Shown: in pieces, positions 29,273-48,373 of the stretch
Layout of the letters: each line of letters begins with the position of its first letter
How positions within the stretch are numbered: the first letter of the stretch is position 1
Origin: a virus
Strand: one strand, 5' to 3'
DNA length: 64,000 bases
IMG/VR virus record: IMGVR_UViG_3300042373_001362
Coordinates: 84,356 to 148,355 of that record
Notes under the pieces: generated by a model
Database searches by the model: none
What the model was told of the DNA's origin: nothing
The model's input: the letters and a program-made list of their open reading frames with translations, nothing else
Translations under genes and position numbers: made by a program

Positions 29273-29308
29273 TGCTATTATTCTACTCTCTGAAACAAAG
29301 GAGAGCGA

Positions 29309-30144: not shown

Positions 30145-30298
30145 AGTCGCTTTTCCTCTCGGCTCGCTTGTTTCTCTCAACATTATCTCAACCCACCCTC
30201 AACCGACAAATCTTTATCTGTGAGGCGGGGCTCACAGATAAAGAAGCACTCAGTGTCGGGGGGTGACACTGAGTGCTTACTGGAGAGAATTGCTGGGG

Positions 30299-30451
30299 CT
30301 AAACGCCCTTGGCGATGAGCAGGTCTATCAAGACGACGAGACGCTGGGCGTCCATCTCGCTCTTTGTGATTCTGCCACGCTTGAGCTGGTCGTCCAACTT
30401 CTCCAACTGGAGAAGGGCTTGTTCTATTGGGGATGTCGCTGTTGTTTCCAT
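30299..30451 (-). CDS. 50-aa leaderless cassette gene (METTATSP..), not in the ORF track
   Basis: ATG 36 nt from the -35 of the minus-strand promoter. Confidence 0.6.
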   Translation of the reverse strand: METTATSPIEQALLQLEKLDDQLKRGRITKSEMDAQRLVVLIDLLIAKGV

Positions 30452-30487
30452 AAGAACAGCCTAGCATCACCCACCCCAGGCCGACAA

Positions 30488-30503
30488 TGTTTCACGTGAA
30501 ACA
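30488..30503. other. parS site (perfect)
   Basis: TGTTTCACGTGAAACA. Confidence 0.85.
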
Positions 30504-30569
30504 TTTTGCCCGACAAGAGCCCCGATGGCTAACTTGTCGGGCAAGGGTGGGTCGGAGTAAGGTGGAGGT

Positions 30570-30734
30570 ATGAACACGGCACCAGAAAAACTGACCAACC
30601 ACCAAATGCTCAACAAGATTGAGGAAGTGATGAACTCCTTCGAGCATCGCCAAGACTGGAGCGACACGGACAGGAAGGTCTTCCTCAGCCTCCACGAGGC
30701 TTGGAAGGCACTCGCTGAAGCAGTCGCCCTCTAG
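30570..30734 (+). CDS. 54-aa leaderless cassette gene, not in the ORF track
   Basis: ATG at +36 from promoter 30534. Confidence 0.6.
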   Translation: MNTAPEKLTNHQMLNKIEEVMNSFEHRQDWSDTDRKVFLSLHEAWKALAEAVAL

Positions 30735-30846
30735 GAAGTGAACGCCCCTCCAGTGGGGGCGTTCTTTCTACGCAAGCCCCGTTTGCGTAGAAAGAACGCT
30801 TGTGGCTGATTTGTCGGCTAAGGGTGGGTCGGTGTAAGGTTTGGGT

Positions 30847-31155
30847 ATGGAAACAACAGCGACAACAAAAGCAGCAATCATCGCAGAGTGGTACGACAAC
30901 CGCTTCGGTGCGGAAGTGTTCGGAGCACTCATCAACATTCTCCGTCTCGCAGGAGCAACGGAGTTCACAATCCCAACCGCTTGGCTTGACTTTCAGCCCA
31001 ACGGTCGGGAAGGCGAGATTGCTTTCCGCTTCGCCCACACGCTCTCTTGGGAGAACGGTGAGACAGCACCAGTCATCAAGGCTCTCCGTGAAGTAGCCCG
31101 TATCAAGTCGGTGGATTGGGACACAGACGCTCCGAGAGATTGGGACTACGACTAG
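30847..31155 (+). CDS. Cassette hypothetical protein
   Basis: Leaderless ATG at +36 from 30811. Confidence 0.7.
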   Translation: METTATTKAAIIAEWYDNRFGAEVFGALINILRLAGATEFTIPTAWLDFQPNGREGEIAFRFAHTLSWENGETAPVIKALREVARIKSVDWDTDAPRDWDYD

Positions 31156-31198
31156 TCCCAACTTGTCGGCTAAGGGTGGGGTGAACTAAGGTATGGGT

Positions 31199-31396
31199 AT
31201 GACATCAACAGCGAAATGGATTAGCGAACTCCCAACAGTAGAGGAGTGCGACAAGGAGATTGCTCGCCTCTCTTACTGGCTGGAAACAAAGCGATACGAG
31301 ATGAGCGCACGAGAGGCAGTTGCCCTCGCTGACCGTATTCGGACTTGGGAGAAAAAGCGCATTTGGGCGAGACGCTACGGAAAGTGTGACTACTGA
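31199..31396 (+). CDS. Cassette hypothetical protein
   Basis: Leaderless ATG at +36 from 31163. Confidence 0.65.
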   Translation: MTSTAKWISELPTVEECDKEIARLSYWLETKRYEMSAREAVALADRIRTWEKKRIWARRYGKCDY

Positions 31397-31790
31397 TGAA
31401 GAAGTACAGCGCAACAATCTCTCTGTTCATTGACGAGTTTGAGGCAGAGGACAGAGAGAGTGCTAGGGCGATTGTCGGCAAATACATTGACCACCTCATT
31501 GACATTTGTGAGGTCAATGAGGGCGAACTCACTTGGGGTGGGGTAGACGAGTCAATAGAAGAAGAACAGTAAGAGAGACGGGGCTCTCTTACTTCTTTTT
31601 CTTTATCGTGTAGCCGTTTGCTTTGAGGTCTTTGACTATCCGTTCTGGAATGCCACCCCAAATGGGGATACCAGAAGAGGCCAGTGAGCGAGCGATAATG
31701 TCAAGCTTTTTCTTACGGTGGAGTTGTCTGAACATTCTGAAAGCATACAACGATTTGTCGGCCTGGGGTGGGGTGGACTAAGATTTAGGT

Positions 31791-31970
31791 ATGGACAGCG
31801 ACAAAGACCTGATGGAACTACTGGAACAGATAGAGAAGATTATGCGCCCACTGGCCGAGTGCTGTGGGAAAATCCCACAAGGCGTATGGTTAGAGCGCAC
31901 CTACTGCGTTTACTGCGAGATGAGTGCCGAGTGGTGCCAGTGTGATGTGTCCGACTTCTGCGACTGCTAG
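31791..31970 (+). CDS. Cys-rich cassette gene, not in the ORF track
   Basis: Leaderless ATG at +36 from 31755. Confidence 0.55.
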   Translation: MDSDKDLMELLEQIEKIMRPLAECCGKIPQGVWLERTYCVYCEMSAEWCQCDVSDFCDC

Positions 31971-32072
31971 CAATCGGCCAGACATCTGACGGCCTTGCTA
32001 CGCAGGCACGAGGCCGGGGCTACGTGCCTGCGTGATTTGTCGGTCGAGGGTGGGTCGGAGTAATGTGTGTGT

Positions 32073-32390
32073 ATGGAAACAAACAGCACATACCCAACAC
32101 CCGAAGCCCAAGCAGTAGCCGAAGGCACAACCGTTCACGAGAGTGGAGCAATCTCTCTCGACAACCCAGCAAGCATTGAGCACTTGCGTTTCGTGAGCGC
32201 AATCAGCGCACTCTCACTCGAAGCAAAGACGGGAATGAAAATGACCCGAGTCCCAATGACACGCTTTTGCCGTGAGAACTACGGAACAACGAAGCGCACC
32301 CTGAAGGGTTGCTTGCGTGAGATGCTCGACCTCTACAAAGAGGTGTACGGGCGTGAGAGCGAGTTTGAGAAGTCCTACAGCCAACTGTAG
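32073..32390 (+). CDS. Cassette hypothetical protein
   Basis: Leaderless ATG at +36 from 32037. Confidence 0.7.
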   Translation: METNSTYPTPEAQAVAEGTTVHESGAISLDNPASIEHLRFVSAISALSLEAKTGMKMTRVPMTRFCRENYGTTKRTLKGCLREMLDLYKEVYGRESEFEKSYSQL

Positions 32391-32491
32391 AACTCTCGAC
32401 CACAGGAACGGCAGCCTGTGGTCGACAAACCCCCTGAGCCCCGGCTATTGGGGGTTTGTCGGTTTGGGGTGGGTACTGATAAAGTGGAATC

Positions 32492-32731
32492 GTGAACAGC
32501 AAGCCAAACTCAATTTTTGACATTTTCGTAGACGGTTGCGAATGCGACAACTGCCAAGAGAAAGTGTCAAAGCCAGACCTATTCGCCAACATCATCACGG
32601 TCAATGGAAAAAGCTCCATTCAGGTGTTCAACAGCGATTACAAGCATTTAGAAGCAGTCAAGTACTCAAGCATCTTTGATGCTATGGCAGTCATTAGAGA
32701 GAACGGTCTAACGCTCCTAGCGTCAATCTGA
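32492..32731 (+). CDS. Cassette hypothetical protein
   Basis: GTG at +36 from 32456; coupled to 32731..32943. Confidence 0.6.
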   Translation: MNSKPNSIFDIFVDGCECDNCQEKVSKPDLFANIITVNGKSSIQVFNSDYKHLEAVKYSSIFDAMAVIRENGLTLLASI

Positions 32732-33109
32732 TGACATACAACGAGTTTCTATTCCACTTCATCAAGAGCCTCCCCAATGACGGAGAGACGCGCATTGGAC
32801 AGCACTACTTCAACACGCTCAACGAAGTACGGCCAGAAATAGCCAAGAGAATCAGAGCGATGAAGATTGACCCGTTCTATTTGAACTCAGTCCCCGAAGA
32901 AACGGAAAAGGTGGTACGGGGCTTATGGGAGCAGAAGCTGTGAACTTGTCGGTTTGGGGTGGGGTGAACTAATCTGTGTGTATGGACAGCGATTACCAAA
33001 ACGAATACCAAGACCATTGCGAAGACCTCGCAAACTCTTTCCTCTGTGACACGGCAGAACCAAAAGAACAGCCCGATTACGGAGACATTGAGAGCGATGG
33101 AGTTTTCTA

Positions 33110-33463
33110 ATGGGAGTATTTGAGCAAGCACAAGAAGAGATGTGGAGAAACGCCGTGAGCGTTCGCATCTCACCGATTGACCTTCCCGATGAACCAATGA
33201 GCGAATGGATGTGGGATGTTGAGATTGTCGTTCCAAATAATCAGTGGGAGAACTCTGATGAAGATGGGAACTTCACGATTGAGCAATGTGGCATTGACTC
33301 TTTTCATTCGCTTGAGTCAGCTTTTGAGTGGGCGTACAAGTGGCTCAAGGGTCGTGGCTATGATGTCTCCAACATTGAACTTTCATTGACCTCAATGGTG
33401 GGCAGTGGGATTACTCACAACAACGATTTACAAAAAGTTATGGAAGCGAGAACAAATGCTTGA
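33110..33463 (+). CDS. Hypothetical protein
   Basis: Coupled to the 42-aa leaderless ORF 32982..33110. Confidence 0.6.
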   Translation: MGVFEQAQEEMWRNAVSVRISPIDLPDEPMSEWMWDVEIVVPNNQWENSDEDGNFTIEQCGIDSFHSLESAFEWAYKWLKGRGYDVSNIELSLTSMVGSGITHNNDLQKVMEARTNA

Positions 33464-33836
33464 GGCATTGCCAAAGGAATGTAGTGAGTGCGGGGCTCAC
33501 TACCCATCACACCAGCAAGAAGGTCGCTTTATTGACTACGGGTGGTCTTTCAACTACCTCACTCTCGGTCACTACGGAGGATTTACCGATTGCGTTCCCG
33601 ACAGGGGAGATGATTGGGATGATGAGAAATACATTGTCCACCTTTGCCACGATTGCTGTCTGAAACTAATACGGGCATTGCCTAGTGTCTTTAGAAAAGC
33701 TCTCGGTGACTTAGGTTGTCATCCAGGCAATGTCGGACAGCCAGCGTGCTGTGAGTATGCGTGGACAACAGACAATTCAGGCTTTCACTACAGAGGGTCG
33801 GCTGATGGCTCTTGGACTTTGGTTGGTAAGGACTGA
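33456..33836 (+). CDS. Cys-rich hypothetical protein
   Basis: CSEC..LCHDCC. Confidence 0.6.
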   Translation: MLEALPKECSECGAHYPSHQQEGRFIDYGWSFNYLTLGHYGGFTDCVPDRGDDWDDEKYIVHLCHDCCLKLIRALPSVFRKALGDLGCHPGNVGQPACCEYAWTTDNSGFHYRGSADGSWTLVGKD

Positions 33837-34151
33837 TGTACCATTGAGTACATGAGTGAAGAGCAACAGCCAAAAGAACAGCCACAAAAAGCTGAGAAAA
33901 AAGTTACCGAGGTGAACATCACCAAGCCCCGTCCCGGGAAGCTAAGGACAACAGTTATTCGGAAGGTTTGTTGCCGTCGCGGAAGATAAGCCACTGTCCG
34001 TAGCAAGAGTTGAGAACAGCGCACAAAATAAGAATTATCGCTAATACTGTCCCTACAAAGAAAGACATGTAAGCGATAACAAGACTCAATCCAATGTGAA
34101 GCAACCCCTTCATGACGGGGTCTTCAGGAATCCATCTATCAATAACTGAAA

Positions 34152-34391
34152 TCAGCTTTTCCAATGGTTTCTCCACTGACTAGGTGAATGACCTTCCTCA
34201 GCCTCTGCTTTATCTTCCGGAGATTCATAAAGACGAATGGCGTGGATACATGGGTCTCCACCTTCTTCCCACATTTCTTCTTCTGCTTTTGTCTGTGGCA
34301 ATCCGTCATGGGTTTCGCAAAGAGGTGGTGAACACCAACCTTGTTGCATGCCATAGGTAATCCATTCGTCAAAGTTGTTTATCTCGGCCAT
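34152..34391 (-). CDS. Hypothetical protein
   Basis: GWCSPPLCETHDGLP..GGDPCIH. Confidence 0.6.
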   Translation of the reverse strand: MAEINNFDEWITYGMQQGWCSPPLCETHDGLPQTKAEEEMWEEGGDPCIHAIRLYESPEDKAEAEEGHSPSQWRNHWKS

Positions 34392-34733
34392 GTCTAATCC
34401 TTAGAAAAGTGTTGGGTCATTGTCTACGCCGTCTTTGACGCAGTACTCATGAATGTATCGGAAATCTTCTGTAATTATTGAATGGACGCTTCTGCCTTTT
34501 CCCTTCAACCAAACCGTAGCTTGCCGGACGACAGTGCTCGAGTTTCTATCTAAGGGATGGCCACACTTCTCACAATAATAAAGCGATGGCATTTTCATGG
34601 TTCGCATCTTATAGGAATAGCCCCGCTATTCCTACACACAGGGAGAAGGGCGAAACTTGTCGGCTAAGGGTGGGGTCTTGCTAAACTGGCAAAGCCGAAA
34701 GGCACACAGCGAAAAACAGCGAAAGGAAAAGCA

Positions 34734-35087
34734 GTGGCACTTACAGCACAGGAACTTGCGAAGCTCCCGATTTGGGAAGCAGAAGCGTTCGGGCGTTGGC
34801 TCGCAGGCGAAGCGTTTGATGACGGTTCTGACGATTATTACGATTCTTCCGAGGGAGAACTTTACGCCGAGTTCGTCTCATCTTGGGTTTCGGGTGGAGG
34901 TCTTTACTCTGACGCCTCTCGGGCGTGGAATTCAGGTATCGCTCACCGTAACGGTTACGCTTCAGCTCCCGAGGGAGATTACGAGGAACGCCCTGATTGG
35001 CTTCCTCGTTACGGCACCCCTGAATGGGAAGCTTACGAGCTTGCGATGGACGCACGAGATTACATGGAAGAAATGCGAGGTTATTAG
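34734..35087 (+). CDS. Acidic hypothetical protein
   Basis: Promoter 34657, short leader with AAGGA SD, GTG start. Confidence 0.65.
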   Translation: MALTAQELAKLPIWEAEAFGRWLAGEAFDDGSDDYYDSSEGELYAEFVSSWVSGGGLYSDASRAWNSGIAHRNGYASAPEGDYEERPDWLPRYGTPEWEAYELAMDARDYMEEMRGY

Positions 35088-35549
35088 GATGCGAGCGATT
35101 CACAACACACCAATTCCCGACGAGCAAGAGTTCCCTATCCCCGACGATTGCGTTTGCGACGGTGACGAGCTTTGCGAAGCTTGTCAGCGTGTCATCGCCG
35201 ACGACCTGCGTCAGCAGGAGGAAGAGGAGGCGGGGCTCCTCTTGTACTTGTCGGTTGAGGGTGGGGACTAATAAAATTAGGTCATGCTGATAACGACATA
35301 TTGCAAAAACGAAAAGTGCGCTGAATTTGAGAACGACTTTGACGACCAAGAAGTTGATTTAGACGGCGATTACACACTCAAGGATTGGGTTGAGTACGAA
35401 TGGGATTGCCCAGAGTGTGGAGAGACCAGCACCCACTATGAGCAAGCGAAAGACCTGCATCATGGTTATTGGTCAGATGACTACTAACCGATAACGCAAT
35501 GCTTGTTGCGCTATCTAAAGGTATAGACGGGGCTATACCTTTAGATAGA

Positions 35550-35861
35550 TTATCGCAGAGCTTCTTTTCCTTCTTCAGTGATTTCGCAAACCTGCATCGC
35601 CGAACCGGCCGAAGAAGGTCGAGTTTCACCGGTAGGAACAATCAAGCCGTTAGCACGAAGTTCTGAGCACCTCTTCCAATAGCAACACTTTGGCTTCGAA
35701 GCAAGTCCAGTGGCTATGCCAGCTTCCTCATCAGTTAGACCACCGTGTAAATATTCAGCAAGTAACAGCATCGCTTGTGAGCGTTTACGAGGCTTGACAT
35801 CTTCAGCACCCATCGCCGAAGTGGCCGGGTCTGCACTACGAAACATTGGTAAGTCGTTCAT
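35550..35861 (-). CDS. Winged-HTH-like protein
   Basis: RSADPATS..GLTDEEAG..KRCSELRANGLI. Confidence 0.55.
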   Translation of the reverse strand: MNDLPMFRSADPATSAMGAEDVKPRKRSQAMLLLAEYLHGGLTDEEAGIATGLASKPKCCYWKRCSELRANGLIVPTGETRPSSAGSAMQVCEITEEGKEALR

Positions 35862-36361
35862 AAGTTTCCTTCTATTTGTTTTCAAGTCTAAACATTATGC
35901 CAAGCGTTTGAACATCTGTCAATCTCACCACTACGGGAGCCCCGCCCCCGTAGTGGTGAGATTTGTCGGCTAGGGGTGGGTCGTGATAAGTTGTTTACAG
36001 ACAAGGAAGTAAGCCAAGTCGGTGGGGAAGCCTAGAAAGCACCACATTGTTGAAGCCGAGAGGTGGAGATGTGAATGACGGTGTAGCCCACATAAAAACC
36101 ACCCAATAACAGCGAAAGAGAAAAAATGGGATACGACTACGATTACGACTGGGACGACCGAGACGAACTCGCAGGTCATCACGCCGCAGGCGCAGCCGAG
36201 GCACGAGCTGAGGACGAGCTGGACTGGGAAGAGGAGGAATAACCAGTCCCCTACGGGCGTAGCCCCGGCTTACCCCGTAGGGGTGATTTGTCGGTTAGGG
36301 GTTGTCTTTGCGAGAATGTAGGAGTGAACTCCATTGGGGGGTTCAGGAAGGAACAGCGATT

Positions 36362-37901: not shown

Positions 37902-37903
37902 AA

Positions 37904-38302
37904 ATGGGCGACAGGGCAGTAACAGGATTTAGGGAGACACCCGAATCACCAACGATTTTCATTTACCAACATTGGGTAAATGGTGACCAGTGTGACGTTC
38001 TAGCAAGCGCATTAGAAGCGTCACGCCCTAGGTGGAAAGATGATTCATACGCCACCCGTATCTGTCTCTCTCAAATTGTTGGGGAGAGTTGGAATGGTGA
38101 ATTGGGCTACGGCATTTACGCAAGTGGCACATCACACGGTGCCGATTACGATTACATTTTGGTAGTTGATTGGTCTCGTATGGTTGTGATGGTTTGTCGC
38201 AATGATGATTCGGATTCAGTAATTGGAGAATTGTCTTTTGACGATTTTCTTCTACACCCACAAACAGCAGTATCCGACATTCTTGACAGCGTGAGGAGTT
38301 GA
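37904..38302 (+). CDS. Phage hypothetical protein (MGDRA..IYQHW)
   Basis: Follows the cassette gene directly. Confidence 0.65.
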   Translation: MGDRAVTGFRETPESPTIFIYQHWVNGDQCDVLASALEASRPRWKDDSYATRICLSQIVGESWNGELGYGIYASGTSHGADYDYILVVDWSRMVVMVCRNDDSDSVIGELSFDDFLLHPQTAVSDILDSVRS

Positions 38303-39011
38303 TAACAGGGGGAGCCCCGTCTCCCCCTGTTATTGGATTTGTCGGTTGAGGGTGGGTCTTGCTAATCTGATTACATGAACACAGCGACAGACATTCAGTT
38401 AGCAGAAGCACTACTCACGAGCCTTGCCCGTGTGATTGTGCGAAACTCAAAAGACCACGATGAAATGGTTTCACAGTTCATCACCACTTGCACCACCTAT
38501 CGCATTGAGTTGATGACCAACATGGCAGAGAACCTTTGGCAGAAGGTTCTCACCGTTCAGGAAGGAAACAAGTAATGGCTTGCCGATGCGACTCACTTGG
38601 GTATCAGTGCCCTGATTGCGACAGGTTCTACACCAACAGCGAACGCTACGCACACATTCACGATGCGAAGTTTGACCGTAATGGCAACTTCACAGGGCGT
38701 GACAGTTGGAAAGACAACGATGAGTTTTTTGATGGGGACTGGGACGACTAATGGGATTATTTACTTCCTACGTTTTTTATCGTGTTGGCAAGAGTCGTGG
38801 CGAGCGAAAAGCGAGACAACGAGACCACGGGGCTCCGGCTTGTTATGACGAGCGGTGCGATGATTACTACTACTGCAAAGCAAGTGAGAACTGCAACGGT
38901 CAATGCACTTACGAGAATCAAGAGTAGCTCTCGCTTGCGCAGCCCCGCTGCGCAATAAGCACGGCCATTCTCGATTTGTCGGTTAGGGGTTGACGTTGCT
39001 AATCTTTGAGC

Positions 39012-39449: not shown

Positions 39450-39563
39450 TCGAGAGAGGCCAAGCATCTTATGGTGCTTGTGTCTCTCCCTACGGGAGAC
39501 GGGGCTCCCGTAGGGAGATTGTCCGGTTTGTCGGTTAGGGGGTGGGCATACTAAGGTGGGTGC

Positions 39564-39842: not shown

Positions 39843-40120
39843 AGCAATGCGTAACCCATTCATCATCAAGACCGGCCCAAACGAGGGCTACACCTACTTC
39901 CGTCTCATCAAGGCGAAGGCGTATCTTCGCTACTTGCGTATTCGCTACGCAAGGTAGTCGAGAAGTATCCGGATACTTACAAGCTGAGTATCCGGATACT
40001 TTACCGGCTGCGTGTCCGGCTATTCTTCCCGGTTACAAATCAGCAGCGGGGCTTCTGCTGATTTGTCGGTCGAGGGGTGGCGTTGCTAAGGTGATTACGT
40101 CTACAGCGAAAGGGGACACT

Positions 40121-40414: not shown

Positions 40415-41390
40415 AACACTATTTCATTGTTTGCTTCGACGCAGAGTCGAACACTTGGGATTGGGATACGGAGCAAGAGGAGGCCTCACTCACTGACGGC
40501 ACTTGCTTCGATGAGAAATCTGGAGAATGGGTTTACGCCTATCTCGGTGATGGTGAGTACATCGACGACGAAGACCTACTGTCAGAACAACTGTGCAGCC
40601 ATCTCAGAATGATGAACAACGAAAGGAAAGCTGCTGCCGAATAGCGCAGCAAAATTCCGGTGCAGCAAGCGAGCGGGGCTTGCTGCAGGTCGTCGGGAGT
40701 TTGTCGGCTTGGGGTAGGGCCAACTAAGATAAAGACATGGAAACAGCGATGAACATTCAGGTAACAACGGAACACGAAAATTGCGAATACTGCAATAACT
40801 TCATTGACGGAAGTGTTGAGCAATTTCTCTCCGATGACAGGTACAACGTTGCTAGCGGTTACGGGCACATCACTTCTGCTGGTGGCTACGGTGGCACAAC
40901 GGCAGACGGTGTAACTCACTCCGCTATGGTGCGTTGGGCTACGGCCTAACAAAAATTCCGGCAGCGGAAAACACTGCGGCACAAACCAGGCAGCAATGCG
41001 GCCATACATAGGTGCATAGCCCCGCTATGCACCTATGTATTTGTCGGCTTGGGGTGGGCAGTGCTAAGGTAAAGACATGGCAACAGCGAAAACAAAAAAA
41101 CTCAAAGTTCAAGATGTAGTTGGCAACGAAGTGCGTTTGCACTCTCAGCTGTGGATACAGGGATACTGTGACGGTATCTGCACTGGCTACGACAGCAAGC
41201 GTGGAGTGCTCTTCTTCCGTCGTCATGGCCAGCAACTTGATGAGGGTACTTACGAAGTACGCAACATCTCACAGTTTGAATTGCTGTAAGGGAATGAGGG
41301 AACCGAAAGGTTCCCTTTACCCGTATTGAGCCCCGGTATTGGCTGCATCGATTGCGCAGCAGAAATCACTGCGGCACAAAAGTACTGCTG

Positions 41391-41678: not shown

Positions 41679-41885
41679 GTGAGGGAGACCCACCGCCTCT
41701 CCTCCGATACAACCGAATCGCACCAGTCCCTCCGCAGGATAAGGCTCTGGACAGCAAGCCTCTGATGGGCGTACGACCATCAAGCATCCGCCACAGTCCA
41801 CCCGTCCTCCCTCTCGCGCGATAACTGCTCTAGGCTCGGGGGTGCTAGCCCCAGTATCGGAGGTGGGGCGGGGGGTCTTTTTCTT
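41679..41885 (+). ncRNA. Structured non-coding RNA, copy 1 (6S-like rod)
   Basis: Array promoter 41642, no credible ORF; 41681-41710 pairs with 41854-41883; ends in a U-tract; homolog at 43313. Confidence 0.7.
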
Positions 41886-41954
41886 TGTGCCAAAAGCGGG
41901 GCTTGGCACAAAGAAAGTTTGTCGGTCGTGGGTGGCCTGTTCTAAGATTGTCTT

Positions 41955-42257: not shown

Positions 42258-42375
42258 CCCGCCGGAATTTCCGGCAGCCGCACGCACGAGTGGCTAGCCC
42301 CGCTAGCCACTAATACGTGAGTGCTCCTCTTTCGTAAATTGTCGGTTAGGGGTGGGTGGGTGTAATGTTGGAGAC

Positions 42376-42672: not shown

Positions 42673-43312
42673 GATAGAGACATGGAAACAGCACAAGCAT
42701 TCATCATCGTCACTTGGTTCTTGGTCAAGTGTGCAGGACTCGCAATCTTTGCAGTCGGCGCATACACCACTATCCAATGGATTAGGAAAAATGTCTCATT
42801 CTTCACTTACGAAGATGTAGACCCATCAGAAGACCCCGACTGGGTTCGGGAAAACTACGGATAACAATCCGTAGACAGCGACAGCGAGAAAGTTCTTGCT
42901 CCCAGTTTGTCGCTGTACTGGTTGAGCAGAAAGAGAAAGAGTCACTTTCGGGTGGCTCTTTCTCTATGTGGAGCCCCGGTTCTCCGGACAAAAAGAAAGA
43001 GCCCCAGCAATAAAGCTGAAGCTCCTCTTTCCTTGTGACTCACCATTAGAGCTCTCAAGGAAGAGCTTATGTCTGGTCGTGAGCCAATCCAGCAAGGGGG
43101 ACTTCCTTACCCGATAGTTGGTATCTGCCGATGTCCCTAACCCAATCGAGCTAAGTACGGTTTCGTTCCTCAACAGCAGTGTCCCTGACTGATAGGTAAA
43201 CATTACCAGCATTTCTCCAGCTTGTCAACTCAGATAGTCGTGGCCTCAATCTAGGCAACGGGGCTCATTTCCCGATTTGTCGGGTCAGGGGGGGTGGTGA
43301 TAAATTGGTCTT

Positions 43313-43521
43313 GTGAGCGAGGCTCTTCGCCTCTCCCACACACAACATAAGTGCATAGTCTCCCTTCTGGATAAGGCTCTTGTCACTGCGATATCCTCTC
43401 CACTCTCCGGAAGTGCGATGTTCCCTCCAGTCAGACAATCCGTCCTCCTCTGAATAGACCTCTCCTTATGGGGGTGACGACCTCGTGTGTGGGTGGGGCG
43501 AAGGGGCTCGCTCTTTCTTTT
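43313..43521 (+). ncRNA. Structured non-coding RNA, copy 2 (6S-like rod)
   Basis: Array promoter 43277; 43315-43343 pairs with 43485-43513; U-tract; covaries with copy 1. Confidence 0.7.
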
Positions 43522-43554
43522 ACATAGGGGCAAGCCCCGTCTTGCCCCTATGTA

Positions 43555-43570
43555 TGTTTCACGTGAAACA
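43555..43570. other. parS site (perfect)
   Basis: TGTTTCACGTGAAACA. Confidence 0.85.
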
Positions 43571-43612
43571 TTGGACTTGTCGGTCAGGGGTGGGTGCGAC
43601 TAAGGTGGGGGT

Positions 43613-43915
43613 ATGGAAACAGCAACAACATTGGAAACATCAGTCGGCAACCAACTCCCAAAGGGAAACGGCTCATTCTCGGTCACTACGATTGTCAATG
43701 GACTGATTATCACGCCAAGCAACTCATCAGCGATTAGTCAAATCAACTACCTCGCTGATGACAGCGTTCTTGTCGTGACATACAGCAACGGTGGTATGTA
43801 CCACTACAAAGAAGTCCCAGCAACGGTGGTATTCCACTTATTGGTTGCCGAGAGTTTTGGGAAGTTCATCAACGCACACATCAAGCCACACTACGAGTTT
43901 CGCAAAATCTGGTAA
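43613..43915 (+). CDS. KTSC-domain protein 1
   Basis: SSAISQINY..VLVVTYSNGGMYHYKEVP..LLVAESFGKFINAHIKPHY. Confidence 0.8.
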   Translation: METATTLETSVGNQLPKGNGSFSVTTIVNGLIITPSNSSAISQINYLADDSVLVVTYSNGGMYHYKEVPATVVFHLLVAESFGKFINAHIKPHYEFRKIW

Positions 43916-44043
43916 CAAGTCCCCCCAATAGATAGCCCCACCTGATACCCCGTCAGGTGGGGCTATCGCTTTATTACGGGGAAGCCCCGTTTCCCCGTAA
44001 TAAAGATTTGTCGGTCAGGGGTGGGCCGCGATACAGTGGAGAC

Positions 44044-44259
44044 ATGAGCAGCGACACAACATACACAGAACAGCAGTACGAAACCATTGAGGAAGTTTGC
44101 ATAGAACACGCCGTGTTTGGTTTCATTGAGGAGTACGGCCTGGTGGAGTCAGACTTCATCAAATGGGCTTCCGACAACGGCGTGAGCTATGAGGACTTAC
44201 TGGACAACATGTACGACCACATCGACGACTTTGTGAAGGACTTGTCCACTTCTCGATAA
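44044..44259 (+). CDS. Cassette hypothetical protein
   Basis: Leaderless ATG at +36 from 44008. Confidence 0.65.
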   Translation: MSSDTTYTEQQYETIEEVCIEHAVFGFIEEYGLVESDFIKWASDNGVSYEDLLDNMYDHIDDFVKDLSTSR

Positions 44260-44386
44260 GGCCGCCAGCCCTGACCGATTCCTCCTGGTCGGTCAGGGCT
44301 TTATTCTCTCCTGAGCCCCGACTGTCCGGGTGAGAGAGTTCCATAACGAGACTGTACGAACGTACGTACGGGGCTCCCATAGGGAG

Positions 44387-44402
44387 TGTTTCCCGTGAAA
44401 CA
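44387..44402. other. parS site (one mismatch)
   Basis: TGTTTCCCGTGAAACA. Confidence 0.7.
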
Positions 44403-44444
44403 TTGGATTTGTCGGTTAGGGGTGGGCTGTAATAAAGTGGGGTT

Positions 44445-44741
44445 ATGGAAACAACAGCAACATTTGAAACATCACTCGGCAACCAACTTCCTTCGGGCAA
44501 CGGTACTTTCACAGTCCTTGACAGTGGAAACCTCATCATCAGACCAACCTCATCAGCAATCAGCAAAGTCAGTTACCTCATTGGCTCGCAAGTACTTGTT
44601 GTGAAATACAACGGCAGTGAGACCAAATACTTCTATCGGAATGTTCCCGTAGCAGTGGCGTTCCACCTGCTAATCGCTGACAGTTTCGGCAAGTTCATCA
44701 ACGCTCACATCAAGCCCAACTACGAGTTCTGGACAAGTTAG
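44445..44741 (+). CDS. KTSC-domain protein 2
   Basis: Paralog of 43613: SSAISKVSY..YFYRNVP..ADSFGKFINAHIKPNY. Confidence 0.8.
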   Translation: METTATFETSLGNQLPSGNGTFTVLDSGNLIIRPTSSAISKVSYLIGSQVLVVKYNGSETKYFYRNVPVAVAFHLLIADSFGKFINAHIKPNYEFWTS

Positions 44742-44878
44742 CCCCACCAGCCCCCCAACAGATAGCCCTACCCGATACTCCTAGTCGGGTAGGGCTATCG
44801 CTTTTCCCATAGGGAAGCCCCGCTGCCCCTATGGGAGTGGACTTGTCGGCTTGGGGTGGGTGCTGCTAAATTGGAGTT

Positions 44879-45151
44879 ATGGAAACAAACAGCGAAATCA
44901 GCACCGCCCACCTTCCCCACTTCTGTGGTGAAACTTGTATGTTGGAAGCCGAGCAAGTTGGCTACTTCACGGGTGACGATTGGGTAAATACCGAGCAAGA
45001 GTTCACCCACGAGAATCCCCATTGCGATTGGTGTGGCGAGTCTGATGATGACGGTGATGAAGATTCAGCGTGGGCAGACGCAGACGCATTACGCTCTATC
45101 GGTTGGGGTGATGACGAGGATTATGGATACTGTGGTGGTGACGACTACTAA
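44879..45151 (+). CDS. Acidic cassette protein (METNSEI family)
   Basis: WADADALRSIGWGDDEDY; paralog of 27088..27321. Confidence 0.7.
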   Translation: METNSEISTAHLPHFCGETCMLEAEQVGYFTGDDWVNTEQEFTHENPHCDWCGESDDDGDEDSAWADADALRSIGWGDDEDYGYCGGDDY

Positions 45152-45588
45152 GTAACAGGGGAAGGTTAGCCTTCCCCTTATTCTCTGCCTGAGTCCCGTT
45201 TACTGCTGTGACTAAGTCTCTTTACAGAACTGTACGAACATACGTACGGGGCTACGGATGAACTTGTCGGCCTGGGGTTGGCCCTGGTAATGTCTGGGTA
45301 TGGAAAAAACAGTGACTATCCCGTACGCGCTACTACTCGAACTCTATGAGTCCCAGGTGTACGATGCGTACTACAACCCCCAGACAATCTACGGCCCTGG
45401 GCGACCAGAAGCCCTGGAGTTCATTGCCAAGATGAATGAGTTCGTGGCCGAGCAAGACCAATACGAAGAAGAGTAACCAAAGCCCTGGCCTAGCAGCTGG
45501 GGCTTTATCTCTATTGGAGCCCCGTCTCCAATAGAGATACCCCCGACAAGATTTGTCGGGCAGGGGTGGGTCGGTCTAAGATGGAGGT

Positions 45589-45897
45589 ATGACATCAACA
45601 GCGATTCAGTATCAAACAGCACAACACGACCTTCCAATGCCAAAGGGCAACGGAACATTTATTGTCTTTGCAGACGGAACCCTAATGGGTCACCCCGAAT
45701 CATCGGCAGTAGCAGAATGGAACTACCTTGTCCACACGGCAACGCTTGTAGTGGAATACAAGGGAAGCCCCAAGCAATACTTCTACGAAGAAGTACCTTC
45801 CTACAAGGTATTCCAAATGCTCGCCAGCGACAGCATCGGCTCATTCATCGCCAAGGCAATCAAGCCCCACCACCAAGTGTGGTCGCCCGAGCGCTAA
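45589..45897 (+). CDS. KTSC-domain protein 3
   Basis: SSAVAEWNY..YFYEEVP..ASDSIGSFIAKAIKP. Confidence 0.75.
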   Translation: MTSTAIQYQTAQHDLPMPKGNGTFIVFADGTLMGHPESSAVAEWNYLVHTATLVVEYKGSPKQYFYEEVPSYKVFQMLASDSIGSFIAKAIKPHHQVWSPER

Positions 45898-46074
45898 TCC
45901 CAGCAGTTCCCCCCAAGAACGGAGAGCCCACCCACCCCCATTTGGGTGGGCTTCTCTGCTTGTGAGCCCCGTTGCAGCCAGGGAGACCGCTGCGCTCCCC
46001 GGACACGAAGCAGCAGCTGCGGGGCTATAAATCACGATTTGTCGGGCAGGGGTGGGGGTTGCTAAGGTGGAGGT

Positions 46075-46383
46075 ATGACAACAGCGAAGAGCACGCAGAA
46101 TGTTTCACGTGAAACATTTGAGCGAATCAGTGAAGCGGCCGAAGAATTGCGTAAAGCACTCAAGGCCTTGAACCCAGAGACAGGGCAACTGCCCTCCTAC
46201 AGCAATCCTCACCCACGAGGATGGACATCGTCTTGGGAGGTCGCCCGACCTTGGGATGACACGACAATCTCCAATGCAGTCCACTACGCATTCGCCCTCA
46301 TCCTTGACGAGGGCTGGGAAGATGAGATGGCCGAGAAGCAGGCCGAACTTGACGAGTTCAACAAGGAAGACGAGGAGGGATGA
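46075..46383 (+). CDS. Cassette hypothetical protein containing an in-frame parS
   Basis: Leaderless ATG at +36 from 46039; parS translates as NVSRET. Confidence 0.65.
   Translation: MTTAKSTQNVSRETFERISEAAEELRKALKALNPETGQLPSYSNPHPRGWTSSWEVARPWDDTTISNAVHYAFALILDEGWEDEMAEKQAELDEFNKEDEEG
46101..46116. other. parS site (perfect)
   Basis: TGTTTCACGTGAAACA. Confidence 0.85.
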
Positions 46384-46773
46384 TGGACTTCATTCAGGAA
46401 CCAAAACTGATGACCAGAGTCAAGAAGGAGAAGCCCAAGGAGAAGACCAAGTACAAGGTCAGAGGATGGGTCGAGGACTTGATGGAGAACCCGAACCGAT
46501 GGGCAATCTATTCACGCCGACCGCTAGACCGACAGGGCATGGTCATGGCCTACAGTTCAATGGATGGATACAGGAAGCGCTACCCACACATTGAATGGGC
46601 AATCTCAAAAGAAGATGACGCTTACGCAGTGTGCGGCCGATACACACCGCCGACCGAGGAAGGGTAATCAGGGGAGCGGGGCTTACCTGATTACCGGTAG
46701 CTGAAAACTTGTCGGTCAGGGGTTGTTTCAACTAAGGTTTATTTATGAAAACATTTGCTGAGAGGGCAGAGAA

Positions 46774-47202
46774 ATGATGAGAACGCCAGAACTAATTGCA
46801 CAAGACCATCTTCAATGGTGCGTGGATAATCAAGACGACTGTTTCTTCAAACCAGAAGCAGAGTTGTACGGTGTCACAGATAAAGAGCAGTTTGTAAAGA
46901 TTGCATCTGCAAAAGATGTCTATGCCCTGCTGGAAATCACTTACTCACTTCCACACAACAAGTACATCGCTCTCGCTATCCATGTAACAGGGCTAGCGTC
47001 TCCCTTTGATGAAGATGACCCAACTCCACCATCAGAAAGAGAGGACAGCAGGCGAGTCTCTCTCATCACTATCACCACAGAAGAGGGTATGGGGTCAGCA
47101 CTAGCCTTTTCAGATACAGAAGAGATAATCACAGATGAAGGTGAAGCGTCTGGGGGTCTAGCAGAAGCACTGCTCGATTGTTGGTTCAGGTCAGCATCAT
47201 GA
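46774..47202 (+). CDS. Hypothetical protein, paralog of 49581..50054
   Basis: Shared RRV.L..F.DT.E..TDEG.A.G.LAEA. Confidence 0.7.
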   Translation: MMRTPELIAQDHLQWCVDNQDDCFFKPEAELYGVTDKEQFVKIASAKDVYALLEITYSLPHNKYIALAIHVTGLASPFDEDDPTPPSEREDSRRVSLITITTEEGMGSALAFSDTEEIITDEGEASGGLAEALLDCWFRSAS

Positions 47203-47330
47203 AAAACCTGATGCTCTTCATAGTCACCGTCAGCTCGCTGGCGACCATCTTCTACATCACGCAACTCATCACTCGCCTTTTCTAACACCTGAGCCCCGCG
47301 TGCCCAATTGGGTAACGGGGCTGCCCCCAC

Positions 47331-47400
47331 TAGATAGTTGCGACCACAACTATCTAGTTGCGCACTCAACTAATAAAGATAGTTGCGCACTCAACTAATA
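47331..47400. repeat. Three tandem TAGTTG-N6-CAACTA inverted repeats (operator-like)
   Basis: TAGTTGCGACCACAACTA plus TAGTTGCGCACTCAACTA twice. Confidence 0.7.
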
Positions 47401-47502
47401 AATTCCGTTTGTCGGGGAAATGACCAGAGTGTCCGTACTTCATGACGGTGGTGGATGAGTCTGAATTTGTCGGTTAGGGGTGGGTGCTACTAAGTTGGTG
47501 GC

Positions 47503-47949
47503 ATGACGAAAGCACTTTTCATCCCAGCGACAGGCGAACCACGCACCATCATTCTCCCAAAGGAGAACGCACACAAGACAATCCACGAACTAATCGGTGG
47601 ATGGTTTGACTGTGTGTCCCTATCTAACGAAGTTGTCATGTATGTCCATGACGAAGGTCTGCTCATCGGGCTTGACCCCAATGTCACTGCCAGCACCCTG
47701 TACGGCAACCCCATCGCTGGCGATGTTCTCTTGGTCGGCACACTCAACGCACAAGGCGAGCGTGACGGCTACGACTACGACTTGCCCGAGTTCATGTTTG
47801 AGCCAACCTTTGTGGCACGAGTGAACGAAGTGAACAGCAACCCAATTCACCGAGAAATAATCTCTCTCTACATGGCACAGATGGACTTGACTCCACGCAT
47901 TACAAGCCTGACAGATGACGAGTTCAACGAGTGGTTGGGGGCTAAGTGA
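47503..47949 (+). CDS. DUF3846-like protein
   Basis: LIGGWFDCV..MYVHDEGLL..N..A....IAGDVLLVG. Confidence 0.7.
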   Translation: MTKALFIPATGEPRTIILPKENAHKTIHELIGGWFDCVSLSNEVVMYVHDEGLLIGLDPNVTASTLYGNPIAGDVLLVGTLNAQGERDGYDYDLPEFMFEPTFVARVNEVNSNPIHREIISLYMAQMDLTPRITSLTDDEFNEWLGAK

Positions 47950-48293
47950 TGTTTGACGAAGAACCAATCGCACAACTTGAACGAGAGTTCACCAAACTTG
48001 AATTGTCGGTCATCATTGAAGCACTAATCAACTATCGCAGTGGTGGTGTAAGACCCGACTTTGACTCAGTAGACCCTGAGACAGTCACTATGGAGAACAT
48101 TGACAAAATTGAAATTCCTGTCAAAGAGATGACCGAAGAAGATGAAGAAACAATCACAGAAATGATGATGTTGTTCATCGCTGGATTTACTCAGGTTCTC
48201 AGCGCAGAAGCTGAGATGATGGAAGAAGCAGTCACCAAAGGCACAAAGACGCTCATGGGTGAAATTACAGAATTCCTGAAAGAGCAGAAGTAA
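47946..48293 (+). CDS. Acidic hypothetical protein
   Basis: Coupled ORF. Confidence 0.6.
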   Translation: MMFDEEPIAQLEREFTKLELSVIIEALINYRSGGVRPDFDSVDPETVTMENIDKIEIPVKEMTEEDEETITEMMMLFIAGFTQVLSAEAEMMEEAVTKGTKTLMGEITEFLKEQK

Positions 48294-48373
48294 TCCCCCG
48301 GCTAGATACAGGGGGCGGGGCTCCCTGTATCTAGATTTGTCGGTCAAGGGTGGGTAGAAATAAGATGGAGAAC

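Follow-up and report, generated by a model that had tools for sequence, protein, structure and literature searches.

What does a short word signal that recurs at the boundaries of gene cassettes, framed at many of them by a perfect palindrome? We addressed this question in a lake-water phage with a 148-kb genome, using a 64,000-nucleotide stretch of it (the window, to which coordinates refer unless stated otherwise). A sequence-only reading of this DNA had described hairpins with variable stems and a fixed CCCCG/CGGGG loop at 30211–48334, and had proposed a DNA-level signal for recombination, cassette capture or promoter activation. The word at their centre, AGCCCCG, is restricted to the early-gene block and resembles a putative protein landing site more than it does an ordinary terminator or a recombination site of the integron kind.

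AGCCCCG is confined to a single block of the genome

The word matched the 64-kb window 60 times (29 on the plus and 31 on the minus strand), against 4.49 ± 1.96 and a maximum of 12 in 100 shuffles of the window, a 13-fold enrichment. All 60 copies of the 148-kb genome were confined to a single 45-kb block reaching past the 30211–48334 first noted, with 0 copies across the other 100 kb, where GCCCCG occurred twice versus 12.6 (Markov) to 27 (composition) expected. The 7-mer core was invariant and flank conservation was weak, and an A preceded GCCCCG in 60 of 66 copies. The block coincides, roughly, with the region under a family of near-identical promoters:

17193–60521, no strand assigned: word-bearing block with all 60 AGCCCCG/CGGGGCT copies (genome 101.5–144.9 kb)
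25388–56675, mixed strands: array of about 50 leaderless promoters, TTGTCGG-N4-GGGTGGG-N6-TAnnnT-N6-ATG

Four promoters of the array (25405–30487) are on the minus strand and the remainder on the plus strand, and every cassette has its own. At about 30 of some 45 array promoters the word lay 16–44 nt upstream of the −35 element, a spacing that it held without a palindrome and even inside a coding end (32917, 41625, 43259 and 45247). The remaining copies were unpaired in spacers or stood within genes.

Perfect palindromes carry the word

Perfect palindromes with 8- to 17-bp arms enclosed 29 of the AGCCCCG copies at their centre. They mostly followed a stop codon and preceded the promoter of the next cassette, and most of these hairpins began 7–70 nt past the stop codon. 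Counting perfect palindromes with arms of at least 8 bp, 29 of 69 in the early block had GCCCCG in or at the loop, compared with 0 of 40 in the other 100 kb, in agreement with the more than 20 inverted repeats around a shared core described from the sequence. All seven hairpins offered there as examples were found in place (30211, 30759, 35921, 41004, 41880, 45506 and 48302), as was the terminator at 43931 followed by a CCCCG hairpin at 43969. The palindromes and paired copies are as follows (window coordinates, no strand assigned; L122 is a related locus).

24095–24128: palindrome, 9-bp arms; word where the stem meets the loop
30211–30244: palindrome, 14-bp arms; loop GCGGGG; upstream of minus-strand promoter 30209
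30506–30544: palindrome, 12-bp arms; word in 15-nt loop; between divergent promoters, right arm forming the −35 of promoter 30534
30759–30799: palindrome, 17-bp arms; loop GCCCCGT; folded as DNA
31568–31593: palindrome, 10-bp arms; loop ACGGGG, then a T-run; convergent gene junction, no promoter
32000–32033: palindrome, 11-bp arms; word in 12-nt loop
32423–32461: palindrome, 12-bp arms; right arm extends into the −35; preceded by a hairpin without the word at 32396
33481–33503: palindrome, 8-bp arms; within coding sequence; missing in the L122 orthologue
34612–34634: palindrome, 10-bp arms; CCC triloop (AGC/GCT paired)
35222–35243: palindrome, 8-bp arms; left arm is acidic C-terminal coding sequence; not in the L122 orthologue
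35511–35548: palindrome, 16-bp arms; loop ACGGGG; convergent junction without promoter
35921–35963: palindrome, 17-bp arms; loop AGCCCCGCC; folded as DNA
36248–36283: palindrome, 10-bp arms; word in 16-nt loop
36746–36764: palindrome, 8-bp arms; GGG triloop
37372–37399: palindrome, 8-bp arms; word in 12-nt loop
38302–38333: palindrome, 13-bp arms; loop CCCCGT
38935–38955: palindrome, 9-bp arms
39485–39518: palindrome, 14-bp arms; loop ACGGGG
40035–40066: palindrome, 12-bp arms; right arm overlaps the promoter's ATTTGT
40661–40687: palindrome, 10-bp arms
41004–41040: palindrome, 17-bp arms; CCC triloop; folded as DNA
41880–41916: palindrome, 14-bp arms; loop AAGCGGGGC
42289–42311: palindrome, 10-bp arms; CCC triloop
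43521–43554: palindrome, 14-bp arms; loop CCCCGT; then a TGTTTCACGTGAAACA palindrome and promoter 43577
43969–44005: palindrome, 15-bp arms; loop GCCCCGT; directly after a separate U-tract terminator (43931–43967); folded as DNA
44314–44375: head-to-head pair, 55 nt apart; words base-paired with one another
44805–44836: palindrome, 10-bp arms; after a separate terminator (44761–44799)
45506–45539: palindrome, 14-bp arms; loop CCCCGT; folded as DNA
45965–46026: head-to-head pair, 55 nt apart
46663–46695: palindrome, 10-bp arms; word in 13-nt loop
47292–47322: head-to-head pair AGCCCCG-N17-CGGGGCT, the predominant arrangement among relatives
48302–48334: palindrome, 12-bp arms; loop GGCGGGGCT; folded as DNA

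The six hairpins folded as DNA gave −12 to −20.5 kcal/mol (z = −6 to −9), and 26 hairpins comprised 303 Watson-Crick pairs with no G.U pair and no mismatch. The word in hairpins of the plus-strand array was oriented 13:12, that is, randomly relative to transcription, so the claim that the loop occurs in both orientations applied there as well as to the 29:31 overall. Several boundaries had a classical terminator and a second, word-bearing palindrome, U-tract terminators being separate from and beside the word hairpins (43931, 44761 and 52489). No Rfam family matched the word hairpins. In one lake strain a C>T change at 38940 was paired with a G>A change at 38950, preserving a base pair of palindrome 38935–38955, and at the pair 47292–47322 the spacer varied across lake strains while the words were constant. 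At the L122 boundary orthologous to 38302–38333 the stem was unrelated and the word identical.

Related phages keep the word and change its layout

Relatives were located by using the SNF2-family helicase as an anchor, which yielded 79 related loci with helicases 63–90% identical:

27362–29272, minus strand: SNF2-family helicase gene

The word was enriched at nearly all of the 79 loci and is kept by about 70 related uncultured phages; the exact 18-nt promoter word of this phage occurred at 0 of the 79. Four complete relatives each contained 32–38 word copies within a single block of some 30 kb and next to none in the rest of the genome, whereas a reversed control word had 1–11 copies genome-wide. 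The palindrome-loop layout was seen in this phage and L122. Paired-type relatives had 78–81 unique head-to-head pairs of AGCCCCG and CGGGGCT around a spacer of 17 ± 1 nt that was neither conserved nor self-pairing, and L127–129 had everted pairs. In another clade the words were dispersed inside genes at 2–3 per kb through synonymous codon choice, one such relative having GCCCCG 60 times in about 33 kb and 0 times in about 90 kb. In all layouts the word was restricted to one block, and its orientation in coding DNA was balanced (135:147).

The helicase gene itself contained 3 word copies here, 5–9 in dispersed-type and 0 in paired-type relatives. Dispersed-type genes created their copies through synonymous codon usage at conserved Ala-Pro, Thr-Gly-His and Cys-Pro-Ala positions, which paired-type genes encoded with other codons. 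It is the word rather than the structure that the relatives conserve, including by synonymous codons. By capsid and helicase, the closest cultured relatives are actinobacterial phages.

A putative landing site for a trans-acting factor

Since relatives keep the word in other layouts and always in one block, we reasoned that it is read on duplex DNA in trans. We lean tentatively, at somewhat less than even confidence, towards AGCCCCG being a word recognised on double-stranded DNA by a trans-acting factor and labelling the early block; such a factor would probably be a product of this phage family. The word would label the early part of the chromosome, transcribed by the host polymerase, and be excluded from the remainder. 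The palindromes would serve as cassette insulators or terminators between a stop codon (or classical terminator) and the next −35, and the loop, as the sole palindrome position needing no complementary copy, would hence host the word. The factor would bind at each cassette boundary (in some relatives, at intervals of a few hundred bases) and could treat all early cassettes as one regulon; once accumulated, it might shut off early cassettes or block read-through, while middle and late genes, being word-free, would stay unaffected. Several observations speak against this reading. Duplex binding alone leaves the perfection of the palindromes unexplained, as it does the 8-bp word palindrome inside a gene (33481), the promoterless hairpins at convergent junctions (31568 and 35511) would suit a terminator role equally, and a position 50–80 bp upstream of the start is unusual for a repressor site.

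Two neighbouring genes encode candidate readers:

25434–26510, plus strand: DUF932 (PF06067) protein
26557–27042, plus strand: 161-aa all-helical protein, acidic at the N-terminus and ending in a basic helix at the C-terminus

The DUF932 gene was found in every word-bearing relative with enough flank, and the distribution of the 161-aa gene matched it; both were absent from two separate word-less lineages, a co-loss comprising two events only. The predicted DUF932 fold was poor (pLDDT 51), and no solved relative was found. Judged by this co-occurrence, the DUF932 protein and its acidic neighbour beside the SNF2 helicase were the only candidate readers found, and weak ones.

Recombination and other explanations

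The sequence-only reading had favoured recombination or cassette capture and had recognised no recombinase in the window. Extending the search to the complete genome likewise revealed neither a recombinase of the tyrosine, serine or HUH (Y1) type nor a RecT, and therefore integron-like capture was not supported; the paired sites of relatives also lack a conserved crossover core for strand exchange, and each cassette has its own promoter. The word could still be a recombination junction, either a hotspot or site of an unrecognised enzyme or part of a boundary module (word plus promoter) that provides short homology for exchange between co-infecting relatives, but we consider this unlikely. Its sites are the cassette boundaries of a gene array that is mosaic and changes quickly, with genes shared between the window and L122 scattered among different neighbours, and the perfect palindromes and inverted neighbour copies (35222 and 33481) resemble template-switching products. 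Published promoter-early stem-loop (PeSL) modules of T4-type phages, which combine a stem-loop with an early promoter and for which such exchange has been proposed, also lie beside insertions and deletions (PMC2839356, PMC4122927), and PeSL-like recombination at conserved boundaries is possible. A recombination role, as opposed to duplex recognition, predicts breakpoints right at the word, as occur between some relatives: homology begins or ends 8–22 nt from it in three locus pairs (L151/L156, L174/L191 and L162/L167). When related loci were compared, 12 of the 76 ends of homology breakpoints were within 31 nt of the word, a nearness confounded by the short intergenic spacers in which breakpoints are to be expected anyway, and the other 64 were not near. 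Moreover, 7–10 conserved bases are insufficient for homologous recombination, and neither hundreds of intragenic copies in dispersed-type relatives nor the purge from the late region would be expected of a cassette-boundary site.

The proposal of a DNA-level signal beyond ordinary terminators was supported by the random orientation, the strict pairing, the separate U-tract terminators, and the retention of the word by relatives in stems, loops and coding DNA, in some of them through synonymous codon choice. A structure-specific version, in which a protein would recognise the word as displayed by a hairpin in cruciform or single-stranded DNA (a site for priming or single-strand initiation, an N4 virion-polymerase-type hairpin promoter or the target of a hairpin-binding nuclease), seems quite improbable. 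Perfect palindromes with short loops and strong predicted DNA hairpins fit it, a cruciform displays both loops simultaneously and would so account for the indifference to orientation, and the neighbourhood codes for an SSB, a primase-helicase and the SNF2 helicase, with its weak match to HARP, an annealing helicase. However, most relatives have the word in a stem with a 17-nt unpaired spacer, ill-suited to extrusion, or without an inverted repeat; a G+C-rich centre works against extrusion, N4-type promoters are few and strand-specific, and the genome has no recognisable HUH enzyme. It is very doubtful that the hairpins are simply intrinsic terminators or RNA 3′-end stabilisers of the upstream cassette, with the loop word a by-product of the boundary modules' common descent. 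Terminators of actinobacterial hosts often lack long U-tracts, and the closest cultured relatives infect such hosts; most hairpins follow a stop codon closely, two lie at convergent junctions (31568 with its T-run), the next promoter's ATTTGT could act as a short U-tract, and the paired change in one strain preserves the stem. Yet the transcribed loop would be CCCCG in half of the cases and CGGGG in the rest, G.U pairs are absent, true terminators adjoin several hairpins, one hairpin lies between divergent promoters (30506) and another within a gene (33481), no Rfam family matches, and relatives conserve the word instead of the structure, even through synonymous codons. A role in host DNA-end processing or defence, as a Chi-like protective word or a restriction-like site avoided by the late region, is highly improbable. 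The word is over-represented in both orientations, in some relatives also within coding DNA by synonymous choice, a pattern reminiscent of the statistics of Chi or uptake sequences, and the genome strongly avoids restriction-type words (GATC, 0 versus about 574 expected). A protective word, however, should not be limited to one third of the genome and purged elsewhere, a restriction target should nowhere be 13-fold enriched, there is no Chi-type orientation skew, and GATC, GCCGGC and GGCGCC are depleted in both compartments, unlike AGCCCCG.

Comparison with known systems

PeSLs, described in T4-type phages (Arbiol et al. 2010, PMC2839356; Comeau et al. 2014, PMC4122927), are composite terminator/promoter cassettes. 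The present modules resemble them in having a stem-loop immediately upstream of a near-consensus early promoter and in recurring among the small, variable genes that make up a hyperplastic region, close to sites of insertion, deletion and replacement; in paired-type relatives the stem is likewise conserved and the loop variable. Here, in contrast, stems are unrelated and the loop holds the conserved word, which occurs in both orientations, is dispersed within genes in one clade, is purged from the remaining 100 kb and is common to the whole phage family, unlike this phage's exact promoter word; its nearest cultured relatives are phages of actinobacteria and not T4-like myoviruses. Integron attC sites also mark cassette boundaries with short, conserved inverted cores in a variable structure, a likeness that applies mainly to paired-type relatives. 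They differ in that no integrase accompanies the present array, each cassette has its own promoter, extrahelical bases are absent from the perfect palindromes, both orientations occur, and the word of this phage sits in the loop, not at the stem base.

Duplex recognition as proposed for AGCCCCG, by one protein acting on transcription of many units, recalls the stoperators of mycobacteriophage L5 and other Cluster A phages, which Brown et al. are said to have described in 1997 as 13-bp asymmetric sites for the repressor gp71 in many short intergenic regions. Both are short asymmetric words with tens of copies in short intergenic spaces, and the closest cultured relatives of the present phage are likewise actinobacterial phages. 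Stoperators, however, have one orientation relative to transcription, are genome-wide instead of limited to an early block, are not in hairpin loops, and have a known repressor, that of a temperate phage; no integrase or repressor was found for this phage. Streptomyces phage phiC31 reportedly has conserved inverted repeats (CIRs) together with conserved early promoters (work attributed to Ingham, Wilson and Smith, 1994–95), and thus shares a near-identical early promoter family and a repeated inverted-repeat operator at many intergenic sites, but CIRs are contiguous 17-bp palindromes bound by a phage repressor, whereas the present 7-bp half-sites are 17 bp apart in relatives or stand alone in a loop. 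Neisseria and Haemophilus have DNA uptake sequences, likewise short duplex-read words, which are in strong excess in either orientation, are tolerated in coding DNA and are often arranged as inverted pairs that double as terminator stems. They are genome-wide in the bacterium and serve transformation, whereas AGCCCCG divides a phage genome into two compartments, one marked and one unmarked.

The early block is marked by one 7-mer

AGCCCCG (reverse complement CGGGGCT) occurred 60 times in the window (29 copies on the plus and 31 on the minus strand) versus 4.5 ± 2 times in shuffles, and this word and the two promoter words were the most enriched 7-mers of the early block. The sequence-only reading had taken hairpins with variable stems and a fixed CCCCG/CGGGG loop for a DNA-level signal in recombination, cassette capture or promoter activation, comparable to integrons or promoter-early-stem-loop (PeSL) elements. 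Every hairpin it gave as an example was found in its place, its expectation that AGCCCCG is enriched was borne out, and the same counts dispose of the possibility that the loop is no more frequent than background. The core is an invariant 7-mer, with A preceding GCCCCG in 60 of 66 copies. All 60 copies fall between 101 and 145 kb of the genome, the first 100 kb of which contained no AGCCCCG and 2 GCCCCG versus 12.6-27 expected. At about 30 promoters the word starts 16-44 nt 5' of the -35, and only 8-10 of the 60 copies are genic in this phage.

Exactly at the start of the AGCCCCG block lies a 700-bp C/A-rich low-complexity stretch (window 17250-17950; CACACGCA 19 times, CACATCAC 16 times) with strong negative GC skew, and a G/T-rich counterpart is located at the contig end of the relative L139. 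Candidate explanations for this stretch are an origin, a physical terminus and a repeat that breaks assemblies.

The 148,355-bp viral contig, of which the window is the final 64 kb, has a terminal direct repeat of exactly 127 bp (genome ends; window 63874-64000). Since metagenome assemblers usually work with k-mers of up to 127, this repeat is probably an assembler overlap and the contig circular or permuted in the assembly, so that its termini need not be physical ends. Near-identical DNA was present in about 20 lake-water metagenome runs, and the listed runs, all of lake-water DNA, included no RNA run with this phage. Megablast of the region yielded no match to cultured phages; the nearest of these are actinobacterial (capsid 48% and helicase 34% identical). 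With a TAnnnT -10 box in its promoters and leaderless genes behind them, the array is consistent with an actinobacterial host. The main features are as follows (window coordinates).

0-16 kb: genes for the capsid and for replication
about 17 to 60 kb: about 50 small cassettes, each with its own TTGTCGG-N4-GGGTGGG-N6-TAnnnT promoter and its ATG 36 nt from the -35
14271-15200 and 22308-23117: five tRNA genes (Ile-TAT, Met-CAT, Arg-TCT, Arg-CCT, Lys-TTT)
19439-19888: SSB gene
25434-26510: DUF932 gene
47503-47949: DUF3846 gene
54671-55285: gene for a DUF1281 (Api92-like) ferredoxin-like domain

Many cassettes open with ATGGAAACAACAGC (Met-Glu-Thr-Thr-Ala) as their first codons (window 30534-56700); the promoter module thus runs on into the reading frames, and the conserved unit is about 50 nt long, including the first five codons. 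All five tRNAs read A/T-rich codons, suggesting that the G+C content of the host exceeds that of the phage. Conjugative elements typically encode the combination of DUF3846, DUF1281, SSB and DUF932 in their leading regions. GATC was absent from the complete genome (0 versus about 574 expected), and GCCGGC (0), GGCGCC (1) and ACGCGT (1) were near-absent in both compartments; this scarcity is typical restriction avoidance. Several relatives do have GATC, which suggests that hosts or defences differ.

Palindromes with the word at the loop

The early block contains 69 perfect palindromes with arms of at least 8 bp, versus about 12 expected by chance according to our own estimate. The word was found in or at the loop of 29 of them, including 13 of the 19 longest, and in none of the 40 palindromes in the remaining 100 kb. 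Predicted DNA hairpin energies ranged from -12 to -20.5 kcal/mol (z = -6 to -9), and about 24 palindromes stop 0-12 nt before the -35 of TTGTCGG-N4-GGGTGGG promoters.

Ordinary terminators would form a stable hairpin soon after a stop codon, as these palindromes do, and a role at gene ends is supported by word-bearing palindromes at two promoterless convergent junctions (31568 and 35511) and by the stem pair 38940/38950, which changed jointly from C-G to T-A in one lake strain. However, two further features of intrinsic terminators, a U-tract directly 3' of the hairpin and selection on the transcribed strand with G.U tolerated, were not seen. A T-run followed the word-bearing hairpin at 31568 only, the others having at most the ATTTGT of the next promoter, and 26 hairpins comprised 303 Watson-Crick pairs with no G.U pair, internal mismatch or bulge, which is not usually the outcome of selection on RNA alone. 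The loop of the plus-strand array hairpins was C-rich in 13 and G-rich in 12. Divergent promoters flank one of the word-bearing palindromes (30506), and another is located within a gene (33481). Furthermore, at five boundaries a separate word-less hairpin precedes the word-bearing palindrome that abuts the promoter.

30740/30759: word-less hairpin/word-bearing palindrome
32396/32423: word-less hairpin/word-bearing palindrome
43931/43969: word-less hairpin, with T-run/word-bearing palindrome
44761/44805: word-less hairpin, with T-run/word-bearing palindrome
52489/52520: word-less hairpin, with T-run/word-bearing palindrome

Thus, several facts speak against ordinary terminators as the whole explanation of the word-bearing palindromes.

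A different element, the perfect 16-bp palindrome TGTTTCACGTGAAACA, occurs at window 30488-30503, 43555-43570, 44387-44402 and 46101-46116 and is conserved in the sister phage L122. It lies a few bases 5' of the -35 at three array promoters and once within a cassette, and it looks like a classical dimer operator, putatively serving some cassettes.

Relatives carry the same word in other layouts

Using the neighbouring SNF2 helicase as bait, we collected 80 loci from uncultured viral contigs (helicase 63-100% identical), 79 of which (L122-L200) were compared. AGCCCCG was enriched in both orientations in nearly all 79 loci; the 18-nt promoter word of this phage occurred in none of them, and a scan of viral contigs with it gave single chance matches only. 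In this phage and its sister L122, a single word occupies the loop of unrelated palindromes. Head-to-head pairs AGCCCCG-N-CGGGGCT were found in L125, sister to these two, and in a large clade; the 81 unique pairs had spacers of 16 nt (12), 17 nt (47), 18 nt (16) and 19 nt (6). Spacer sequence is unconserved and spacer ends pair below, not above, chance, indicating that the stem of paired sites does not extend inwards. L127-129 have everted pairs, CGGGGCTTCG...CGAAGCCCCG, and in another clade, of at least 16 loci, (A)GCCCCG is scattered over coding DNA at 2-3 per kb (dispersed type). The word was restricted to one block of about 30 kb in each of four complete relatives (151-170 kb), and a dispersed-type genome of 132 kb concentrated 60 GCCCCG in about 33 kb, leaving about 90 kb free of them. 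Confinement to a single block without strand skew was observed in every complete genome looked at.

The spacing of 17 ± 1 nt suggested a promoter for an alternative sigma factor; this was rejected, given the single words of this phage and the different spacings of everted pairs. As for an alternative word in the word-less relatives, the ACGCACG enrichment of L139 is a simple terminal repeat and no analogue.

Several other motifs were noted. At a paired site of L130, both flanking genes point the same way, and in this locus (e.g., 5200-7850) the 12-mer GGTAGATAAGTC lies about 38 nt 3' of each AGCCCCG pair and also forms inverted pairs after stop codons; it is either the -10 region or another operator, and in L173 and L185 it is oriented differently. 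A GTAGATAAG box occurs in paired-type relatives. On the reverse strand of L129 (about 10520-10650), a spacer cluster consists of DnaA-box-like TTATCCACA / TGTGGATAA words, with similar words in L135 and L189. In the last 17 kb of the window, GACGGTGGTGGA(A/T)GA occurs nine times, always on the plus strand (47444, 51210, 53832, 55945, 59650, 60642, 61410, 62561 and 63299), often immediately 5' of a promoter or start codon, and a related ACGGTGGYGGAAAG recurs in dispersed-type relatives; it is a second family-wide signal.

Codon choice points to selection on the DNA word

Orthologous helicases of dispersed-type and paired-type phages were aligned. Dispersed-type genes contained 5-9 copies of the word, spelled by codon choice at conserved Ala-Pro, Thr-Gly-His, Cys-Pro-Ala and Asp-Gly-Ala, whereas paired-type genes contained none and encoded the same Ala-Pro residues by GCG-CCC, GCA-CCC and the like. 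Counted over long reading frames in dispersed-type loci, the orientations were equal (135:147). Codon choice together with balanced orientation indicated selection on the DNA word itself, strand-symmetric and independent of hairpins. We conclude that the word is presumably read on duplex DNA, the only form in which a reader would meet the same site in loop, stem and coding copies.

Recombination and cassette exchange

The complete 148-kb genome had no match to tyrosine recombinases (PF00589), for which all control genomes matched, nor to serine (PF00239) or Y1/HUH (PF01797) recombinases, and RecT was not found in it. An integron-like system is therefore unsupported. What stands of the proposed cassette-shuffling signal is its action at the DNA level, given the strand-symmetric word and the codon choice; its integron-like side is unsupported, given the missing recombinases and cassettes that each have their own promoter.

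PeSL-type exchange has been proposed for conserved boundary modules (PMC2839356, PMC4122927). Between the window and L122, shared genes are scattered among unrelated neighbours, and upstream of an orthologous gene at 38374 the palindrome stem differs from that of L122 while the word is the same. Comparison of more closely related pairs placed 12 of 76 breakpoint ends within 31 nt of a word, a count confounded with intergenic position, and a few ends lay 8-22 nt from a word in both partners. This proximity is compatible with exchange of the PeSL kind; it would be just as likely if short spacers were simply where breakpoints survive. In the fragmented lake-run contigs, apparent joints and loose ends have sides of 20-25 nt that match the repeated promoter and first codons, and they hence carry no information on shuffling. 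When close relatives were sought for an array gene, just three loci turned up, all 63% identical.

Candidate reader proteins and proposed role

Among all window genes, only two were both present in every word-bearing locus with enough flank and absent from the word-less loci.

25434-26510: DUF932 protein, co-distributed with the word
26557-27042: acidic, helical 161-aa protein, adjoining the DUF932 gene, with the same co-distribution

Both were missing from the word-less L139, L172, L182, L176 and L199 and from an entire 103-kb word-less contig. Word-less loci occupy two places on a quick helicase tree, implying two co-losses of both genes with the word. The pair is thus a lead to candidate readers. 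Neither protein matched a DNA-binding family or had a relative of solved structure, the Atlas lead being another DUF (DUF3871); the predicted model was poor for DUF932 (pLDDT 51) and all-helical for the 161-aa protein (pLDDT 72). A literature search on DUF932 found nothing relevant; members of this family are also encoded by other phages, by plasmids and by integrative elements. A ParB_N protein was rejected as uninformative, since it also occurs in a word-less relative; it is kept at 53-61% identity in all relatives tested, that one included.

genome 46486-47292, minus strand: ParB_N-domain protein, in the structural half
genome 45503-46096, minus strand: PAPS-reductase-like gene, its neighbour

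The observation itself is confirmed and extended: AGCCCCG is a strand-symmetric DNA word that outlasts the promoter word of this phage, marks one genome compartment and is purged from the other. Its function is putative. A trans-acting factor would bind it, more likely phage- than host-encoded because the word persists across relatives differing in G+C (42-61%), GATC avoidance and promoter word. The purge suggests that binding in the late region would be harmful, and such harm fits blocking or silencing better than neutral or protective action; blocking might take the form of early shut-off or a roadblock to read-through. Large lytic phages must silence or isolate dozens of strong early promoters, and the early shut-off mechanisms known to us act on polymerase, not on DNA.

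Between stop codon and -35, this tightly packed array would also have to accommodate a hairpin, whose loop would be the sole position where an asymmetric 7-mer needs no complementary copy; in relatives, two inverted copies would form the stem. This dual use leaves unexplained the perfection of the stems and the apparent growth of palindromes around the word. The right arm at 35222 repeats, in inverted form, the coding sequence before it and is missing in the L122 orthologue, and at 33481 comparison with L122 showed that a variable protein segment holds an inverted copy of the 8 nt upstream. Template switching at a protein-bound site could be one origin of such palindromes.

A more specific proposal, which we consider unlikely, would make AGCCCCG the loading or recognition site of a DUF932-based (UPF0380) system, perhaps with the acidic partner, that splits the chromosome into marked early and unmarked late compartments, with the marked one silenced, insulated or processed as a whole. 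If true, it would provide the first function for DUF932 and explain why palindromes, inverted pairs and synonymous codons were recruited to carry one word. Throughout a family of uncultured phages that are abundant in lakes, a 7-letter word sets the early third of the genome apart and survives changes of promoter, layout (loop, stem, coding) and G+C content. Were it a protein landing site, it would be a compact, testable cis-code for temporal control or modular exchange of accessory cassettes, would offer a handle on the DUF932 family, and its presence or absence would predict early versus late genes in metagenomic genomes of this family.

Comparison with known systems

Rfam returned nothing but one sub-threshold chance match, literature searches on the word and on actinobacteriophage repeat motifs found nothing relevant, and a limited search found no description of a phage-genome-partitioning word that migrates between loop, stem and coding positions. 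As in PeSL cassettes, a stem-loop lies right upstream of a conserved sigma-70-type early promoter between small variable-region genes. In PeSLs, however, the stem base is conserved and the loop variable (GN-loop-CN, A3-4G3-loop-C3T3-4; PMC4122927); this holds for paired-type relatives, whereas in this phage stems are unrelated and the loop is conserved. With L5-type stoperators the word shares a short asymmetric duplex site in many short intergenic regions, but it occurs in both orientations (13:12 in the plus-strand array), and no cognate repressor was found. Stoperators are oriented and genome-wide.

Integron attC sites depend on an integrase and on cassettes that lack promoters; PF00589, PF00239 and PF01797 had no match in the complete genome, and each cassette here has its own promoter. 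Nor do a uniform orientation, extrahelical bases and a stem base with conserved R''/R' core sites describe a word that sits in the loop at 29:31 on perfect stems. Judged on hairpin features, N4-type promoters (strand-specific, short stem, 3-nt loop, few copies) also differ, as here both orientations occur, stems are 8-17 bp, and behind each of about 29 copies comes a -35/-10 promoter of its own. As with Chi or uptake sequences, synonymous choice made the word over-represented in both coding and non-coding DNA of dispersed-type relatives, but in a single block without skew rather than spread genome-wide with the strand skew of Chi. The system fails defining features of PeSLs, stoperators, attC sites, terminators and N4-type promoters. 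The statistics of the word resemble those of uptake sequences, and in its way of working the system comes closest to PeSL cassettes that also carry an asymmetric operator present in many copies, as the L5 stoperators are.
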